Below are positions 3,996 through 62,547 of a DNA stretch of 64,000 bases, piece by piece. The stretch lies in NCBI GenBank assembly GCA_964372755.1, contig CAYJQX010000001.1, positions 6,563 to 70,562 of the forward strand. Direction: 5' to 3'. The stretch is from an uncultured Candidatus Saccharibacteria bacterium. GTDB taxonomy: Bacteria; Patescibacteriota; Minisyncoccia; UBA9983. The notes under the pieces were generated by a model. It was not told where the DNA came from. It did no database searches and saw only the letters and a program-made list of their open reading frames with translations. The translations under genes were made by a program, and so were the position numbers. Numbering within the stretch: position 1 is the stretch's first letter; the number at the start of each line of letters is the position of its first letter.

Positions 3996-4072
3996 GAACA
4001 GAACTCAAAGGTTTCCTTCAACTTCGCTCAGGACAGGTTTCGGAGGTCGAATAAATGTGGCTTTGATAAAAT

Positions 4073-5149
4073 TTAATTGAAAATCTCAAACGAGCAGTTG
4101 TTTTTGTTTGGAATACTTCCTAGGTACTCGTCACAAAAAATCGCAGTTTCCTCGGGGGATAAAAGTTTTGGCTGGGTGCTTATTATTTTGTAGGGGATAA
4201 TATGAACCTCTGTTTTGTTTTGTCCCAAAATCACTCCACCCGCGATTCCTTGATTGGTCTCTGCTTCAAGCTGGTCAAAAACAAAATTTCCGAGAGAGTA
4301 AAAGATCGCTTTTCCTTTATATACTTCAACTGACTCTATGACATGAGGATGGTGGCCGAAAATTATATCGGCGCCACTGTCTATAAGGCTATGAGCTATT
4401 TGCTCCTGATTTTTTGAATGTTGCTTTTGATATTCTATTCCCCAGTGGATATTTACAACGACGTAATCGTTTTCTTCTTTTAATTTCCCAACGAGAGGGT
4501 AAAAATCATGTAGAGGAATCGGTTGGACGGTTTCGTCTATTCCCAAAAAGGCGATATTTTTCTCTCCGATCTGCTTTGAGATGTGGCTTTTCTCGATTGT
4601 TCGTCCGCCAAAATATTCTATGCCAAAGTCATCCAAATTATTTTCTGTGGCGCGGACACCCTCTAGGTAGCAATCAAAGATATGATTATTGGCTAAGTTT
4701 ACCAGACTTACCCCCGCTTTTTTTAGTCTTTCACCCGTACTTTTGGAAAATTGGAAATTATATGCTTTCTTTTGGCAGTTTTCTCTTTCTGTTTCAATAA
4801 TTGGTCCTTCCAGATTACCCACAACAAAGTCTATTTTTTCTTCCAGAAAAGCGTTTTTTATTTCCTCAATATGCTCAAAAGGTTCGCGTCCTTTTGTGAT
4901 GGCATTTCTTACTCCGCGATCCAGCATTATGTCTCCAAAATTTAGGATGGAAATACCCCCCGTCAATTCTTTATATGGGTCTTTCGGTGGGTTTGGTATT
5001 TCTGGATAATTTTCTTGGGAGGTTTGAATTGACTCGTTTTCTTTTGTCTTAAAATAAATCAAGGTTGCCAAGAGAAAAAATATGGCGCCCATGAATACAA
5101 GAAAATGCAACGATTTTTTACCTTTTACCTTTTCCGAGTAATTTTCCAT
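4073..5149 (-). CDS. CapA/PgsA-family metallophosphoesterase (poly-gamma-glutamate synthesis-like), N-terminal membrane anchor
   Basis: Motifs LANNH and GHHPH and a calcineurin-like fold signature. Start placed at internal Met (MENYSEKVKGKKSLHFLVFMGAIFFLL, a TM anchor) so it does not overlap the divergent ORF at 5282. Confidence 0.65.
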   Translation of the reverse strand: MENYSEKVKGKKSLHFLVFMGAIFFLLATLIYFKTKENESIQTSQENYPEIPNPPKDPYKELTGGISILNFGDIMLDRGVRNAITKGREPFEHIEEIKNAFLEEKIDFVVGNLEGPIIETERENCQKKAYNFQFSKSTGERLKKAGVSLVNLANNHIFDCYLEGVRATENNLDDFGIEYFGGRTIEKSHISKQIGEKNIAFLGIDETVQPIPLHDFYPLVGKLKEENDYVVVNIHWGIEYQKQHSKNQEQIAHSLIDSGADIIFGHHPHVIESVEVYKGKAIFYSLGNFVFDQLEAETNQGIAGGVILGQNKTEVHIIPYKIISTQPKLLSPEETAIFCDEYLGSIPNKNNCSFEIFN

Positions 5150-5281: not shown

Positions 5282-6304
5282 ATGGAAAATGTAGAAACAG
5301 CTATAGGGGGCGCGGGGGAGAAAGGCTTTCAAGATCATGGAGAGATAAAATTTCCTAAGGTTTTTTCTTTAATTGAATCTTCTTGGAATATTTACAAAGC
5401 AAATTGGCGGACCTTTTTCGGAGTCATCATTATTCCTCTTGCTGTCTCTGCTTTGTTTAATATTACGAGTCAGTTTATTGGAAATAGTAACAGTTTTTTT
5501 GGTTTTGCTTCATTCTCTGTTTTTTATTTACTTGCCCTATTTTTCCAAGTTTGGGGATATGTGGCTCTTTTGGTTGTGATAACAAACAACGAAGAGAAAA
5601 TCAGCTTCAGAGAAGCTTTCAAAAGAAGTTTACGGAAAATCCATTCTTATCTCTGGGTGACTATTTTATATGTCGCTCTTTTTTTGGGAGGACTGATTTT
5701 TTTTGTAGTTCCTGCCGTTCTTTTTGCCCTGTGGTTTATTTTTAGTTTCTTTATTCTTGTTGCAGAAAACGAGAAAGGAATGAATGCGTTGCTGAAGAGC
5801 CGTGAATACGTAAGAGGTCATTGGTGGCGGATTTTCGGAAAAATATTTTCTTTTGTTTTCTTGGCAATTGTCTCTTGTGTCATATTTCTTTTGCCTGCGG
5901 GTTTGGCTTTTAAGTTTAGTGATTTTTCTTTTCCTCTTATCGCTTTCTTGATTTTTTACTTTTCTATTTTTATGGCATTGGTAACTTTTATTCTTGTCCC
6001 GACGGGCCAAATTTATGCTTTCCTGATATACAAACATCTCAAGGAAATAAAAAAAGATTTTGAATTCAAACCGACAAAGAAAAGAAAAGCCCTTTTCTTT
6101 TCCGTGGCAATCATTGGCCCAGTTGTCGCTCTTGCTTTAACGGCATATTTTATACTCACTGTTTTGGGCTCAATTTTTAAAGCTTTTGGAACACCAAGAC
6201 AGTTTCCTTATGAAAACACCTCCGTTTCTTCGGGGAATGATTTGCAGATTAAAGATCTGGATGCTTTTTTGAATCTCCCAAAAACGATTCCTCCAAAAAA
6301 TTGA
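5282..6304 (+). CDS. polytopic membrane protein, function unknown
   Basis: Multiple hydrophobic helices (FFGVIIIPLAVSALF, LIFFVVPAVLFALWFIFSFFILV and others). No catalytic motif recognised. Confidence 0.45.
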   Translation: MENVETAIGGAGEKGFQDHGEIKFPKVFSLIESSWNIYKANWRTFFGVIIIPLAVSALFNITSQFIGNSNSFFGFASFSVFYLLALFFQVWGYVALLVVITNNEEKISFREAFKRSLRKIHSYLWVTILYVALFLGGLIFFVVPAVLFALWFIFSFFILVAENEKGMNALLKSREYVRGHWWRIFGKIFSFVFLAIVSCVIFLLPAGLAFKFSDFSFPLIAFLIFYFSIFMALVTFILVPTGQIYAFLIYKHLKEIKKDFEFKPTKKRKALFFSVAIIGPVVALALTAYFILTVLGSIFKAFGTPRQFPYENTSVSSGNDLQIKDLDAFLNLPKTIPPKN

Positions 6305-6335: not shown

Positions 6336-7214
6336 GTGGAGTTATTCTCTTTTATAGACGGTTTTTGGAACAAAAATACTTTAGCTGGAGCTACGGCTAT
6401 TTTTGTTCTTGTTATTATCTATCGGCTACTTAGCAAAACTCTTCTTAAACATTTTGAAGAAAAAGGCGTAAAACAAGACGAAAGAAAAAACTTCTTTCTT
6501 TTCTGGCGCTATGGCTGGTATACCTTGGGTATTGTTTTGCTTTTAGTGAGTTTTTCTGGTTCTATCGCGGGCTTGGGTATTTCCGCCGCGTTTCTCGGTC
6601 TTATTATGGGTTGGTCGCTTCAAGCGCCGGTAACGGGCCTTGCGGGCTGGCTTATGATTATTTTGAAACGTCCGTTTAAAATCGGGGACAGAATAATTAT
6701 TGCCGGCATTACCGGAGACGTAACGGATATTAATCTAACCCACATAGTTTTGAATCAGGTGGGTGGCACTATTGGCGGAGAGGAGAGATCGGGCCGGGCG
6801 GTTTTGATTCCAAACGCCACTTTGTTCGGGCAAATAATTTACAACTACACTTCAGAAAGTCATTATTTGCTTGATGAAGTGGTAATTAATGTTACTTTTG
6901 AATCAGATATGGAAGAAGCCAATAAAATTCTTCTTTTGTCAGCCGAAGAGGTGACAGGGGATGTAATGAGGAAAACAAATGAAAAGCCATTTATCCGAAC
7001 GGAAATCATGGAATATGGCGTGCGTCTTCGCTTGCGCTACAAAGCTTTCGCCAAAGACAGGCAGAGAACAACCAGCGAAATATCGGTGCGGATTTTAAAA
7101 GGTTTTAGGGCGTCAGACAAGGTGGCTTTTGCTTATCCTCATACGGAGATAGTTTATAAACCCGACACCAATACGCGAATTGATGCGAATGGCACGAATA
7201 GTATTAAATCCTAA
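6336..7214 (+). CDS. mechanosensitive ion channel, MscS family
   Basis: Three N-terminal TM helices followed by the MscS beta-domain pattern LKRPFKIGDRIIIAGITGDVTDINLTHIVLNQVGG. Confidence 0.8.
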   Translation: MELFSFIDGFWNKNTLAGATAIFVLVIIYRLLSKTLLKHFEEKGVKQDERKNFFLFWRYGWYTLGIVLLLVSFSGSIAGLGISAAFLGLIMGWSLQAPVTGLAGWLMIILKRPFKIGDRIIIAGITGDVTDINLTHIVLNQVGGTIGGEERSGRAVLIPNATLFGQIIYNYTSESHYLLDEVVINVTFESDMEEANKILLLSAEEVTGDVMRKTNEKPFIRTEIMEYGVRLRLRYKAFAKDRQRTTSEISVRILKGFRASDKVAFAYPHTEIVYKPDTNTRIDANGTNSIKS

Positions 7215-7262
7215 CTTCCTTCATTCGCGATATTCGTGGGTATTATTCGTGTATTGGTGTCG
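7163..7262 (+). repeat. about 100-nt imperfect-palindromic MITE-like repeat, copy 1 (terminal inverted repeats CGACACCAATACGCGAAT / ATTCGTGTATTGGTGTCG)
   Basis: Related copies at 27469-27602, 34733-34773 and 39161-39263. This copy contains the last codons and the TAA stop of the MscS gene. Confidence 0.55.
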
Positions 7263-27034: not shown

Positions 27035-27466
27035 ATGAAATTTCAAGTTCCGCAATTCATAGAAGTTGAGACAAAAATATTCGGGCCGCTGACTTTGAAG
27101 CAGTTTTTGTATTTAGCCGGAGGCGCCGGCGCTTCTATCGTGCTCTACAGTTTGCTCCCTTTCTTTTTGATGATTATTTTCGCTGCGCCGATTGTCGCCC
27201 TCGCCCTCGCCCTCGCTTTTTACAAGCTAAATAATCAGCCTTTTGTGAGGGTGCTTGAAAATGCCATTAAGTTTTATCTGTCAGGCAGGCTTTTTTTGTG
27301 GAAGAAGACGCCAAATGAGGACAATAAATCAGTTTCTGTTGATAAAGAAGGAATATTGAAAACTGCGGGAATACAAACAAGCGGAACAACAGGTTATGTG
27401 CCGAAATTAACGCAAAGCAAATTAAAAGATTTATCCTGGAGTTTGGATATTAATAAAGAAACATAA
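27035..27466 (+). CDS. PrgI-family (VirB3-like) small membrane protein of Gram-positive-type T4SS
   Basis: MKFQVPQFIEVETKIFGPLTLKQFLYLAGGAGASIVLYSL matches the PrgI family N-terminal consensus (K.P.D.E...IFG.LT.RQF.YL) followed by a TM hairpin. Confidence 0.6.
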   Translation: MKFQVPQFIEVETKIFGPLTLKQFLYLAGGAGASIVLYSLLPFFLMIIFAAPIVALALALAFYKLNNQPFVRVLENAIKFYLSGRLFLWKKTPNEDNKSVSVDKEGILKTAGIQTSGTTGYVPKLTQSKLKDLSWSLDINKET

Positions 27467-27468
27467 CT

Positions 27469-27602
27469 CGACTCCAATACGCGAATTGACTCGAATGACA
27501 CTAATAGTATTAAAGCCTAACTTCTTTCATCCGCGTCATTCGTGCGCATTATTCCCTCCTTTGCTAGGAAGCTACGGGCGGGCAAGCGTGTATTAGCGTC
27601 GG
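27469..27602 (+). repeat. MITE-like repeat copy 2 (with an internal insertion of about 35 nt)
   Basis: CGACTCCAATACGCGAATTGACTCGAATGACACTAATAGTATTAAAGCCTAACTTCTTTCATCCGCGTCATTCGTGCGCATTATTC ... CGTGTATTAGCGTCGG is collinear with copy 1 at 7163-7262. Confidence 0.55.
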
Positions 27603-34600: not shown

Positions 34601-34732
34601 GCTTGATAATTTAATTATTAGTAATTGTTTATTAATTCAAAAGGCAAGGGTCAAAATTTTCAGAGTTTTATACTTTACATTTTTTACTTTTAATTTTGCC
34701 TTTTGAGTTTTAACTTTTGATTTAAGTTTTTA

Positions 34733-34773
34733 ATTCGCGTCATTCGTGCGTATTATTCGTGTATTAGCGTCGG
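34733..34773 (+). repeat. MITE-like repeat, partial copy 3 (right half)
   Basis: TAATTCGCGTCATTCGTGCGTATTATTCGTGTATTAGCGTCGG. Overlaps the last codons and stop of nusA on the minus strand. Confidence 0.5.
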
Positions 34774-57717: not shown

Positions 57718-58164
57718 ATGCCAGTTTTAGCCGAAAATCGTAAAGCCAGATTTGATTATGAAATCATTGAAGTTTTTGAATCGGGCTTAAAACTTACAGG
57801 TAGCGAAGTGAAAGCTGTTCGGGATGGAAAGGCCTCTATTGCGGGCGCTCATGTCATTATTCGCGGCGGGGAAGCTTATATTGTGGGGGTATCCATACAG
57901 CCATACCAGCCTTCAAATAAGTCTTCTTTGGTGGAAAAAGAAAGAACCATCACTCTTCTTCTAAACAAAAAGGAAATAGAATATCTTTTTGGGAAAACGG
58001 AAAAAACTGGTTTGACAATTGTGCCTATACGTGTTTATACTAAAGGGCCGAGAATAAAGCTGGAAATAGCTCTTTCTCGAGGCAAGAAAAAGAGCGATAA
58101 GAGGGAAACCATAAAAAAAAGAGACGATGAAAGGATTTCCGCTCGCGCTCTAGTACGGGAGTGA
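57718..58164 (+). CDS. smpB: SsrA-binding protein SmpB
   Basis: ENRKARFDYEIIEVFESGLKLTGSEVKAVRDGKASIAGAHV matches the SmpB signature. TGGTATAAT lies 6 nt before the ATG. Confidence 0.9.
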   Translation: MPVLAENRKARFDYEIIEVFESGLKLTGSEVKAVRDGKASIAGAHVIIRGGEAYIVGVSIQPYQPSNKSSLVEKERTITLLLNKKEIEYLFGKTEKTGLTIVPIRVYTKGPRIKLEIALSRGKKKSDKRETIKKRDDERISARALVRE

Positions 58165-58228
58165 CAATTGGTATCGACAAGAAATGTACTTTTATATGCG
58201 CATCGAGCAACATCTCAAATCTCGTAAA

Positions 58229-58516
58229 TCTGGGGGATAAAAACTCAAATGTAGCATCACCTTTTGCTACTCCGGCTCCCGCATACGCGTAAAGTCGGCG
58301 TTTCTTTCCGCAATTCTTGGTAGCGGAGAGAGGCGTTAATTGCCAAGATCGAAATATCACTTTGATTGATAGATGATGTTTCTAAACAAAAATCAATCAC
58401 GGCTTTAAAGATTTGGCCCACTTTCTACTTTAAGGTTTAAAAAATAAAGTGAAGCTACATGCGTAGAAATATTCAAGGAACCTTCTTGCACGTGGGTTCG
58501 AACCCCACCACTTCCA
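58229..58516 (+). ncRNA. ssrA: candidate tmRNA (ssrA) region; ends not resolved
   Basis: Immediately downstream of smpB. A tRNA-like T arm GTGGG TTCGAAC CCCAC (58492-58508) is followed by a 7-nt acceptor-like strand CACTTCC plus A (58509-58516). Upstream candidate 5' end GGGGGAT (58229), hairpin GTAGCA..TGCTAC and a short Ala-rich frame GCT ACT CCG GCT CCC GCA TAC GCG TAA (ATPAPAYA*). The intrinsic terminator at 58580-58607 closes the region. No clean 5' acceptor partner could be found by eye. Confidence 0.35.
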
Positions 58517-58579
58517 CTCGACTCGTTTTGCTTTGGAAAGCAAAACTCGCTCGTGGTAAACCACGTGAGCGATAAAAAT

Positions 58580-58607
58580 ACCCAACCGTAACGGTTGGGT
58601 ATTTTTG
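58580..58607 (+). terminator. rho-independent terminator
   Basis: ACCCAACCG taa CGGTTGGGT ATTTTTG. Confidence 0.7.
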
Positions 58608-58699
58608 AGTTGAGTGCCCCGAGGTTTTGTCGAGGGGCAGTATTCGACGAGTCGAGCGGGCTGTTTACCATGAAGTATCCGAGGGGATATAATTTATCT

Positions 58700-58966
58700 A
58701 TGTATTTTGTTTATATGATTATGAATTCTAGTAGAGATCTTTATGTCGGAGTTACTAAAAATCCAAATGAAAGAGTAAATTTTCATAACAAAAAACAAGG
58801 AGCGAATTTTACTAAAAATAGACTAGAATTCAAGATAGTTTTTCTTGAAGAGTATAAAAGTTTTAAAGAAGCAAGGCAAAGAGAAATCCAAATTAAAAAA
58901 TGGCGAAGAGACAAGAAAGAACGTTTAATAAGTCTTTACAAACAAGGATTAAACACAAAGAAATAA
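58700..58966 (+). CDS. small GIY-YIG nuclease-superfamily protein (YhbQ/UPF0213-like)
   Basis: MYFVYMIMNSSRDLYVGVTKNPNERVNFHN matches the GIY-x10-YIG...R...H...N pattern. TATAAT lies 6 nt before the ATG. Confidence 0.6.
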   Translation: MYFVYMIMNSSRDLYVGVTKNPNERVNFHNKKQGANFTKNRLEFKIVFLEEYKSFKEARQREIQIKKWRRDKKERLISLYKQGLNTKK

Positions 58967-59041
58967 TAGCGGTAATCAAGAGTGGGTTTCCGAGTCGTTC
59001 CAACCCTCGGAGTTACCTCTATTATTTGATAATATAGGCTT

Positions 59042-59671
59042 ATGAAAAATCTTGCTTCAATTTCAAAAACAAAAAGATTTGCTTTCATAGATGTTCAAAA
59101 CACAGCGAGTACAACTGCTAAATTGCTCGGATTTATTATTGATTGACATAAACTTAGTGTCTATCTGAAAGAAAAATGGAATTGTGAAAAAGTTTTCTTT
59201 TATTCTGGTATTGACGAAGGGGATACAGAGTCTGCAAAAGAATTCGATTCTCTGTCAAAAAGTGGCTGTATTGTAAAAGCTAAAACCGTTTTTTCTTACA
59301 AGAAACCGGACAAAACAATATCTATAAAATGTGTTGATTGCGGAAAAGATAATGTTGAAGTTGTCGACATGGGATATAATAGAAAATCAAATTGTGATGT
59401 TGATTTGACTGTTGATGCTATGGAAATAGCCAGCACTAAAACAGAATTTCTTATTTTTACCGGTGACGGTGATTTTGATTATCTTATTCGTAAAGTGGTG
59501 GAAAGAGGAACAAAAGTTTATATAGTTTCTTCCAATGCTGGAGTTCGAAAACCTGGAATAAATACAAAACGCCTTTCTACTAGGCTTAAAAGCCTAGTAG
59601 ATGGAAATAGGGGAAAAATTAACCTTATTGATATCAATAGTTGGAAAATGAGGATAAAGAAAGAGATATAA
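59042..59671 (+). pseudogene. NYN/LabA-like (PIN-related) domain gene interrupted by an in-frame TGA at 59144-59146
   Basis: A single frame reads MKNLASISKTKRFAFIDVQNTASTTAKLLGFIID * HKLSVYLKEKWNCEKVFFYSGIDEGD...NCDVDLTVDAMEIAS...EFLIFTGDGDFDYLIRKVVERGTKVYIVSS. The NYN/LabA conserved blocks span the stop. TGA is a genuine stop elsewhere in this window (for example pilB). Confidence 0.5.
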
Positions 59672-62475: not shown

Positions 62476-62547
62476 GCGTCCGTAGCTCAATGGTAGAGCA
62501 GTCGTCTTATACACGACTGGCTGGGGGTTCGAGTCCCTCCGGACGCA
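62476..62547 (+). tRNA. tRNA with anticodon TAT (UAU; would decode AUA = Ile); CCA not encoded
   Basis: GCGTCCG TA GCTC AATGGTA GAGC A GTCGT CTTATAC ACGAC TGGCT GGGGG TTCGAGT CCCTC CGGACGC A. The cloverleaf is regular. Anticodon stem GTCGT/ACGAC is perfect and the loop CTTATAC puts TAT at positions 34-36. Confidence 0.65.

Follow-up and report, generated by a model that had tools for sequence, protein, structure and literature searches.

In the established pathway of transfer-messenger RNA (tmRNA) and SmpB, the RNA passes through RNase P, CCA addition, alanylation and trans-translation, and a G3:U pair in its acceptor stem is the alanine identity element. Here we describe the smpB–ssrA locus of an uncultured Candidatus Saccharibacteria bacterium, on a stretch of 64,000 nucleotides (nt) of contig CAYJQX010000001.1 that we refer to as the window, together with a structured element and a gene for a small GIY-YIG nuclease that directly follow the tmRNA gene, ssrA. 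Genes for tmRNA occur in three forms and do not always encode CCA, and there are taxa in which ARAGORN and BLASTN searches fail and Rfam-based searches are needed (PMC11915505). The window ssrA resembles such cases in its missing CCA, its failure in ARAGORN and its detection through Rfam. With the standard one-piece tmRNA (RF00023) that works with SmpB it shares a tRNA-like domain with G3:U, the pseudoknot PK1, a tag frame, the T arm, colinear alignment along the entire model and a position directly after smpB; its particulars are an 8-nt overlap with smpB, the absent CCA, a tag of the form AS...AYA and failed tag detection by ARAGORN.

Several described systems bear on the downstream element, which we read together with its GIY-YIG gene as a cassette. 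Phage T4 SegB is a free-standing GIY-YIG homing endonuclease gene in a tRNA gene cluster, and we know of no such structured module for Seg genes. Elements that transpose or replicate through hairpins in single strands, such as IS200/IS605, REP/RAYT and the parvovirus inverted terminal repeats with their GAGC repeats, depend on HUH (Y1) enzymes. The small GIY-YIG proteins of the UPF0213/YhbQ/YazA kind (bacterial Slx1-like; PDB 1ZG2 and 1YWL) have the same size and single domain as the protein of 88 amino acids (aa) encoded here; to our knowledge, they are products of chromosomal genes with an unexplained role, and no description links them to tRNA or tmRNA 3′ ends or to structured flanking sequence. 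A survey of the GIY-YIG superfamily mentions tRNA only by way of a TrmH fusion (PMC1564403), SegB and tRNA genes are dealt with in PMC13096335, and Islander covers genomic islands integrated in tRNA and tmRNA genes by tyrosine integrases (PMC4383910).

The cassette shares with Seg-type genes the placement of a GIY-YIG gene beside tRNA-type genes, a sporadic distribution and a plausibly selfish inheritance, but its 88-aa protein consists of the catalytic domain only, its setting is bacterial and chromosomal with 0 viral or phage matches, and its structured module abuts CCA. With tyrosine-integrase islands it has in common the target class, namely the 3′ side of tRNA and tmRNA genes, and occasional displaced 3′ fragments; in contrast to them it measures ~450 bp, has no integrase, joins its target after the last nucleotide and shows no regular att duplication. 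The analogy to the hairpin-dependent elements lies in one-orientation insertion directly 3′ of a short motif (CCA-Y for the element), subterminal hairpins, a multi-arm hairpin junction, GAGC/CGAG boxes and junction bases that pair and covary with internal sequence. No open reading frame (ORF) for a Y1 (HUH) transposase is present in the cassette, whose only protein is the GIY-YIG nuclease.

Overall, the locus is very probably accounted for as a whole by an ordinary tmRNA and a separate conserved module downstream, the latter read as a probable selfish GIY-YIG cassette. Positions 58157–58516 are a standard one-piece tmRNA gene of a bacterium of the Patescibacteria (candidate phyla radiation, CPR), with the following parts:

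57718–58164, plus strand: smpB, 148 aa (ORF), whose stop codon TGA at 58162–58164 lies inside the first 8 nt of ssrA
58157–58516, plus strand: tmRNA gene (ssrA), standard one-piece, 360 nt, no encoded CCA (Rfam RF00023)
58157–58163, plus strand: 5′ strand of the acceptor stem, GGGAGUG, pairing with 58509–58515 and containing the G of G3:U
58204–58238, plus strand: pseudoknot PK1, with CGAG 58204–58207 paired to CUCG 58221–58224 and AUCUC 58212–58216 paired to GGGAU 58234–58238 (Rfam alignment)
58254–58292, plus strand: tag frame from the GCA resume codon to TAA, encoding ASPFATPAPAYA (frame conserved in the relatives L218 and L219)
58492–58508, 58509–58515 and 58516, plus strand: T arm, 3′ strand of the acceptor stem (CACUUCC) and discriminator A58516

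A scan against 4227 Rfam families (cmscan) matched RF00023 at 58157–58519 on the plus strand at E 1.5e-39, with a score of 104 bits where the gathering score is 47, and the alignment is colinear over model positions 1–374 without truncation. The original prediction had seen here a probable but atypical tmRNA next to smpB; the tmRNA stands, as the Rfam check proposed at the time gives this full-length match, but an atypical form is not supported by the colinear alignment to the standard model. The T arm (GTGGG-TTCGAAC-CCCAC, 58492–58508), the strand CACTTCC at 58509–58515 and A58516 lie where they had been placed. The claim that CACTTCC has no acceptor complement fails, since GGGAGTG at 58157–58163 pairs with it with a G.U at the third position; that strand escaped notice through its overlap with the end of smpB, 3 nt before the coordinate at which the earlier reading began. 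The acceptor pairs (GC, GC, GU, AU, GC, UA, GC) are the same in the window, L218 and L219. The upstream protein is SmpB by both NCBIfam (SmpB equivalog, E 9.8e-50) and Pfam (PF01668, E 4.7e-48), and the 5′ end of ssrA overlaps the last 8 nt of its gene, stop codon included.

Relatives were gathered by an SmpB scan of species-representative genomes, which yielded 80 loci (numbered with L, as are the other loci named here), nearly all from metagenome-assembled genomes of Patescibacteria, with a best identity of 61%. A protein search gave the closest relatives, L219 (SmpB 82% identical) and L218 (70%), whose tmRNAs share 88% column identity with that of the window. In the consensus fold of these three sequences, 13 of 96 pairs are changed on both sides, and the compensatory changes are located in helix 2, the second PK1 stem (columns 63–67 with 85–89 of the three-sequence alignment) and the T arm, where a UA pair becomes CG. 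When the 80 related loci were searched by blastn with the tmRNA plus flanking sequence, alignments were confined to the conserved ends; this search led to L060. The tmRNA lies directly 3′ of smpB in most of the 80 loci; the gap from smpB stop to ssrA start is at most 5 nt in 20 of the 47 loci with mapped genes, 5 of which overlap. L021, L218 and L219 have the identical GGGAGTGAC/TGA arrangement with the 8-nt overlap of the window, and overlaps of other kinds occur in 4 further relatives. L218 and L219 encode CCA; in the window A58516 is followed by CTC.

The tag frame likewise follows the relatives. The context AAAUGUA-GCA is identical in the window, L218 and L219, the tags of L218 and L219 read ASPFATPAQAYA and ASPFATPTLAYA, and those of other relatives end in AYA, AFA or ALA. 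The frame ending in ATPAPAYA had been spotted earlier, with its TAA at 58290–58292, as had the hairpin of GTAGCA (58251–58256) with TGCTAC (58265–58270); the sequence GGGGGAT also exists, at 58232–58238 instead of 58229. An in-frame resume codon GAU further upstream, at 58236, which would give DKNSNVASPF... and thus a AKNISSKVASIVSPF-like tag, was rejected because GAU belongs to the 3′ strand of PK1, and PK1 covaries. At default settings ARAGORN reports five tRNAs and no tmRNA in the window, so that the ARAGORN run once proposed as a test would have misled. At thresholds of 90% (-ps90) it places the gene borders at 58157–58517 and offers a tag DVSKQ... further downstream. The borders are thus found and an implausible tag is picked, and the failure therefore lies in the scoring of resume codon and tag, not in the tRNA-like domain. 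The tag DVSKQ... was not used. Three points speak against the tmRNA as drawn here: the silence of default ARAGORN at 58157–58516; the S at the second tag residue, where relatives usually have N or K; and a spacer of 15 nt from PK1 to the resume codon, compared with 10–12 nt in relatives on inspection by eye.

The original prediction had further entertained a divergent, permuted or two-piece gene whose true 5′ end would be GGGGCAGTATTCGAC at 58634, after the T arm. This motif superficially resembles a canonical tmRNA 5′ end, and the default silence of ARAGORN would suit such a gene. In the permuted tmRNAs of alpha- and beta-proteobacteria and cyanobacteria, the piece with acceptor and T arm precedes the coding piece, whereas the window has the standard order, its stems kept with compensatory changes in two relatives; beyond being tmRNAs the two have nothing in common. 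The colinear full-length match to RF00023 and the acceptor partner GGGAGTG upstream refute the permuted gene, a second or partial tmRNA at 58634 is rejected as no second or other tmRNA-family match appears in 58100–58760 at E up to 10, and GGGGCAGTATTCGAC is the 3′ arm of a hairpin in an element also found behind ordinary tRNAs. We therefore give the permuted reading practically no chance. The ordinary ssrA RNA would be cut from a longer transcript, arising either by co-transcription with smpB or from a start at a TTGACA-18-TATACT box within smpB; RNase P would generate its 5′ end and an enzyme would add CCA, and the alanine-charged RNA would act with SmpB on stalled ribosomes and tag the nascent peptide. 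The promoter-like box itself, at 58012–58041, is near-consensus and precedes the 5′ end of ssrA by ~110 nt. L218 and L219 retain the two hexamers, a conservation that is uninformative because the box sits in conserved smpB codons.

For annotation, and for annotation only, the tmRNA result matters in that the ssrA of this lineage is invisible to ARAGORN. The program misses L218 and L219 as well as at least six relatives that Rfam detects (L006, L016, L022, L030, L032 and L033), and with the ssrA 5′ end hidden in smpB such genomes may be wrongly scored as lacking tmRNA.

Positions 58515–58661 form a module separate from the tmRNA, made of a closing helix (P1), a first hairpin (hp1), a core with a second hairpin (hp2, TCGCTCRTGGYAARCCAC), a third hairpin (hp3) and an inverted right block with tandem-GA hairpins. 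The module and the gene behind it are laid out as follows:

58515–58524, plus strand: 5′ strand of helix P1, CAC-UCGACUC, pairing with 58607–58616 with one G.U
58525–58546, plus strand: hairpin hp1, GUUUUGCUU-UGGA-AAGCAAAAC, variable in sequence and fixed in position
58547–58572, plus strand: core TCGCTCGTGGTAAACCAC (hp2 GUGG-UAAA-CCAC), here extended by GTGAGCGA, nearly invariant in the copies read
58574–58606, plus strand: hp3, an A-run, a 10-bp stem and a T-run, resembling an intrinsic terminator by sequence and folding
58607–58616, plus strand: 3′ strand of helix P1, GAGUUGAGUG, from pairing and covariation
58616–58661, plus strand: right block, with the hairpin GCCCC-GAGG..UCGA-GGGGC (58616–58638) followed by a second GAGTCGAG box and CGGGC (58648–58661)
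58664–58693, plus strand: promoter-like TTTACC-18-TATAAT before the GIY-YIG ORF, agreeing at 10 of 12 consensus positions (consensus match only)
58700–58966, plus strand: GIY-YIG nuclease gene, 88 aa, UPF0213/YhbQ-like (Pfam PF01541, E 1.7e-18)

The sequence 58517–58660 folds into a closed structure of several hairpins at −74 kcal/mol (z = −9.8 relative to shuffles), and P1 opens with two bases that belong to the tmRNA, its final acceptor C and its discriminator A; across copies, too, P1 takes in the terminal C-A of the tRNA or tmRNA. Several pieces of the module had been noticed before, within a region read as a probable tmRNA. The hairpin TCGCTCGTGG..CCACGTGAGCGA at 58547–58572 is present, and the core occurs in the window as one exact match; the terminator-like palindrome around 58580 is equally real, with its stem at 58579–58601, A-run at 58574–58578 and T-run at 58602–58606. 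The complementarity of CTCGACTCG (58517–58525) with CGAGTCGAG (58648–58656) holds too, as does the presence of GGGGCAGTATTCGAC at 58634; it is their place in the tmRNA that does not, as both belong to a separate conserved element found also after ordinary tRNA genes. The right block, which contains GGGGCAGTATTCGAC, is an inverted and degenerate copy of the left module, and in nhmmer the left-module profile matches the right block of L081 on the minus strand. Hairpin hp3 probably ends the ssrA transcript, and an equivalent hairpin with a T-run stands at the same place in L082, L161, L107, L114, L144, L100, L131 and L156. A simple terminator scanner did not call hp3, probably because the T-run pairs into the stem.

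Across copies, the order of parts begins with CCA-Y, TCGACTCR, the variable hp1, the core TCGCTCRTGG-YAAR-CCAC (hp2) and often hp3, and continues with GAGTCGA-R-TG, at least one NNNN-GAGC-loop-GTCGA-N′N′N′N′ hairpin ending in GAGTCGARNGGGC, an A/T-rich box and ATG. The TATAAT-like, A/T-rich box is found at the equivalent place in relatives. Covariation was assessed by aligning, without gaps, segments of 41 distinct copies that were defined by anchors; 90.4% of cells pair, compared with 78.1% in shuffles (0 of 500 shuffles reach the observed value) and with 30–38% after sliding of the partner column. The R of GAGTCGA-R-TG and the base that follows CCA form CG in 24, UA in 16 and UG in 1 of these copies and are never unpaired; a second P1 pair is CG in 35 and UA in 6, and the loop-closing Y-R pair of hp2 is CG in 23, UA in 17 and UG in 1, two-state patterns that may partly mirror two lineages. 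All six tested pairs of hp1 show several pair types across copies, and its mean fold energy is −9.4 kcal/mol compared with −2.9 in shuffles. In the right block the flank stems covary (CCCU/AGGG, UCCC/GGGA, UUCC/GGAA, CAGU/ACUG), and an internal C-G pair changes to U-A; these hairpins were counted with a tight pattern, as a loose regular expression gave mostly spurious overlapping units. At L219, positions 1108–1160 after the encoded CCA read as a divergent left module, TTCGCTCC, with a hairpin and GGTG-CAAG-CACC; the two strands of its hp2 stem have exchanged bases so that pairing is kept (GGUG-CAAG-CACC).

The ordered motifs of the element recur in L060, L065, L081, L082, L084 and L090. In L060 they follow a tmRNA that cannot be aligned and precede a homologue of the ORF at 58700–58966, and more generally the noncoding sequence of the element is conserved although the host tmRNAs defy alignment. 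A metagenome scan with a pattern derived from 3 copies (TCGAYT, a gap, then TCRCTCRTGGYAARCCAC) returned at least 120 matches; the same pattern had no match in viral contigs, and the element had none in plasmid and phage collections. Placement was tabulated for 81 copies that were read. CCAC or CCAT precedes the element in 75 of them, bases that the search pattern does not contain. In 30 of the 81 the element starts 0–1 nt after a tRNA gene called by ARAGORN, with 11 tRNA identities represented (Val, Ala, Lys, Tyr, SeC, Gly, Arg, Leu, Phe, Ile and Met), 15 adjoin a tmRNA, which makes at least 45 in direct contact with a tRNA or tmRNA gene, and a further 15 are preceded by a sequence like a T arm. 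At genes with an encoded CCA the junction reads CCA-T-TCGACTCG; where CCA is not encoded, the acceptor of the copies read (tmRNA, tRNA-Ala, tRNA-Ile) ends in CC and discriminator A, so that the junction still reads CCA. The window fits this rule, with the element beginning directly after A58516, which accounts for the loss of an encoded CCA in its ssrA.

Occupancy is sporadic. Among 80 species-level smpB/ssrA loci there are 2 clear copies and 1 weak one, the 5 tRNAs of the window carry none, and the 60 nt of L218 between CCA and the contig end are free of element motifs. Hosts of the element differ strongly in base composition. Left modules stand in tandem in L148 and L170, and the core itself ends in CCAY. 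The contigs of L218, L219 and L220 end inside ssrA or within ~75 nt after it, which suggests that assemblies break at the ssrA locus of the closest relatives; the element may explain these breaks. The copy of the element in L118 comes after a T-arm-like 3′ end (..CCAT) at which ARAGORN called no tRNA, and a group I intron (positions 123–376; Rfam, 79.5 bits) stands shortly before that 3′ end. Rfam 15 contains nothing relevant for 58517–58700 at E up to 10 or for 18 element-carrying loci at E up to 1, no description of the element was found in the literature, in full-text searches that included literal sequence strings, and neither the GIY-YIG superfamily survey (PMC1564403) nor the tmRNA database (PMC11915505) mentions it. 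The downstream element is widespread, structurally conserved and apparently undescribed.

The 88-aa GIY-YIG protein is encoded by the only ORF between ssrA and a downstream NYN gene, and a GIY-YIG ORF lies 40–190 nt past the core in 37 of the 81 copies. Its match to PF01541 spans residues 1–73 of 88 and thus covers the catalytic domain only; its best matches in the PDB are 1ZG2 (UPF0213 BH0048, E 3e-8) and 1YWL (EF2693, E 5.5e-6). It has 539 homologues, of which the named ones are from Patescibacteria. Four homologues 66–69% identical to it all lie in the context smpB, tmRNA, conserved spacer and GIY-YIG gene, with differing outer genes, and the order smpB, ssrA, element and GIY-YIG gene is the same in L081, L082, L084, L090 and L060. 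Other copies of the element lack the ORF and have unrelated genes downstream. Two more distant GIY-YIG ORFs were also seen at such loci: in L078 (4900–5230) one stands ~100 nt after the tmRNA, behind different hairpins and no TCGACTCG motif, and in L046 (4604–4870) one lies between smpB and ssrA.

Stray tmRNA ends are another feature of the neighborhood. Immediately behind the GIY-YIG ORF, L060 (2712–2735, minus strand) and L135 repeat the 3′ end of their own tmRNA, and L144 has behind its ORF a piece of the 3′ end of a different, foreign tmRNA (ATCCGCCCATCTCCA), a sign of possible transfer between hosts. In the window, the sequence GAGTGGGTTTCCGAGTCGTTCCAACCCTCGG at 58983–59020, after the GIY-YIG stop codon, is weakly T-arm-like (GTTCCAACCC compared with GTTCGAACCC, p ~0.08 against shuffles), and could be a decayed displaced 3′ end or a product of chance. 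A 136-nt direct repeat of the 3′ part of a tRNA-Leu gene with the left module occurs in L140 at 202–337 and 4014–4149, 3.8 kb apart, with a third, partial tRNA fragment at 5578–5633, and looks like tandem islands at one tRNA gene.

We marginally favor the view that module and GIY-YIG gene together are a selfish cassette that spreads to the 3′ boundaries of tRNA-type genes or is maintained there, with the mechanism inferred. Mobility is favored because of the sporadic occupancy, the many tRNA identities, the diverse hosts, the noncoding sequence conserved beside unalignable tmRNAs, the tandem modules, the copies without ORF and the stray tmRNA 3′ ends. In such a cassette the GIY-YIG protein would act as a structure-specific nuclease on the folded junction next to CCA, the module would supply a terminator to the upstream RNA gene and carry its own promoter, and copies without the ORF would be decayed or non-autonomous derivatives. 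A rival that we hold rather unlikely, at about half the weight, makes the element a cis-acting RNA, either a 3′ trailer for precise processing of tRNA and tmRNA at CCA or a leader of the GIY-YIG gene, with spread as a secondary matter. The element always lies on the same strand as the tRNA or tmRNA and the ORF, in P1 the final CA of the tRNA pairs with sequence further downstream, which would set the processing site at a helix end, the YAAR loop and the GNA-type loops are compatible with RNA folding, and the alternative pairings of boxes A/A′/A″ and B/B′ look switch-like. A leader or trailer sits poorly, however, with unrelated genes downstream of ORF-less copies, with a terminator-like hairpin inside P1 in AT-rich copies, with pair counts in which G.U does not exceed A.C, and with the many tRNA genes, the 5 of the window included, that do without the element. 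Such a role does not exclude mobility, and both could hold.

Tandem islands and displaced tmRNA ends also invite a comparison with integrase-type islands, of which the locus could be a remnant: the tmRNA 3′ end would have served as attB, and the hairpins and the nuclease would be leftover cargo. Genes for tRNA and tmRNA are classic integration sites at which the gene is regenerated and a fragment displaced (PMC4383910), the second tmRNA 3′ ends after the ORF in L060 and L135 would fit this, and so would the repeats 3.8 kb apart in L140. Yet no integrase lies in or beside the window cassette, a displaced 3′ fragment is significant in 2 of 39 copies only, the junction falls at the very gene end, after CCA, and not within the gene, and the same noncoding module stands at 11 tRNA identities, unlike random cargo; we regard an island remnant as improbable. 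The selfish cassette that we prefer has to contend with a set of observations of its own. The cassette contains no recombinase, and its 88-aa protein has no DNA-binding domain such as the C-terminal one of the I-TevI/Seg type. Target duplication is not regular, as the resident 3′ end recurs significantly behind the ORF in only 2 of 39 copies. The terminator-like hp3 lies inside P1, and an RNA that ends at hp3 could not form P1. The alignment behind the pair counts was assembled from motif anchors and is hence biased toward structure, and its non-Watson–Crick cells show, in small numbers, no excess of G.U over A.C, so that the fold may be one of RNA or of DNA.

A more specific proposal, which we advance tentatively and with slightly greater doubt than the cassette itself, is that the element represents an undescribed and widespread structured class of ~100–180 nt that starts exactly after CCA, or after acceptor CC and discriminator A, is coupled to the 88-aa GIY-YIG protein, pairs with the terminal CA, and is marked by the core UCGCUCRUGG-YAAR-CCAC and tandem-GA hairpins. 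If this is true, the element would be a new kind of mobile element that recognizes tRNA-type 3′ ends by nucleic-acid structure, or else a new processing or ribozyme-like RNA. The element could matter more than the tmRNA, as a conserved fold that many uncultured bacteria carry precisely at the 3′ ends of tRNA-type genes and that is linked to the smallest kind of GIY-YIG protein. It offers a testable entry to the role of the unexplained UPF0213/YhbQ-like nucleases and to integrase-free recognition of tRNA ends by a selfish cassette.

Beyond the cassette, the NYN-domain ORF (PF01936) at 59042–59671 is intact but for one in-frame TGA at 59144–59146 (..GFIID*HKLSVY..), which would mark a pseudogene, a sequencing error or local recoding; smpB in the window uses TGA as its stop codon. 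ARAGORN places a tRNA-Ile with the anticodon TAT (UAU), uncommon in bacteria, at 62476–62547, and calls for tRNA-Ile(TAT) occur also in L026, L028, L033, L039, L044, L051, L061, L063 and L068. Elsewhere in the window, a 90-nt direct repeat (86% identical) at 7159–7248 and 27465–27554, with a third, partial copy at 34730–34772, may be another small repeat element.

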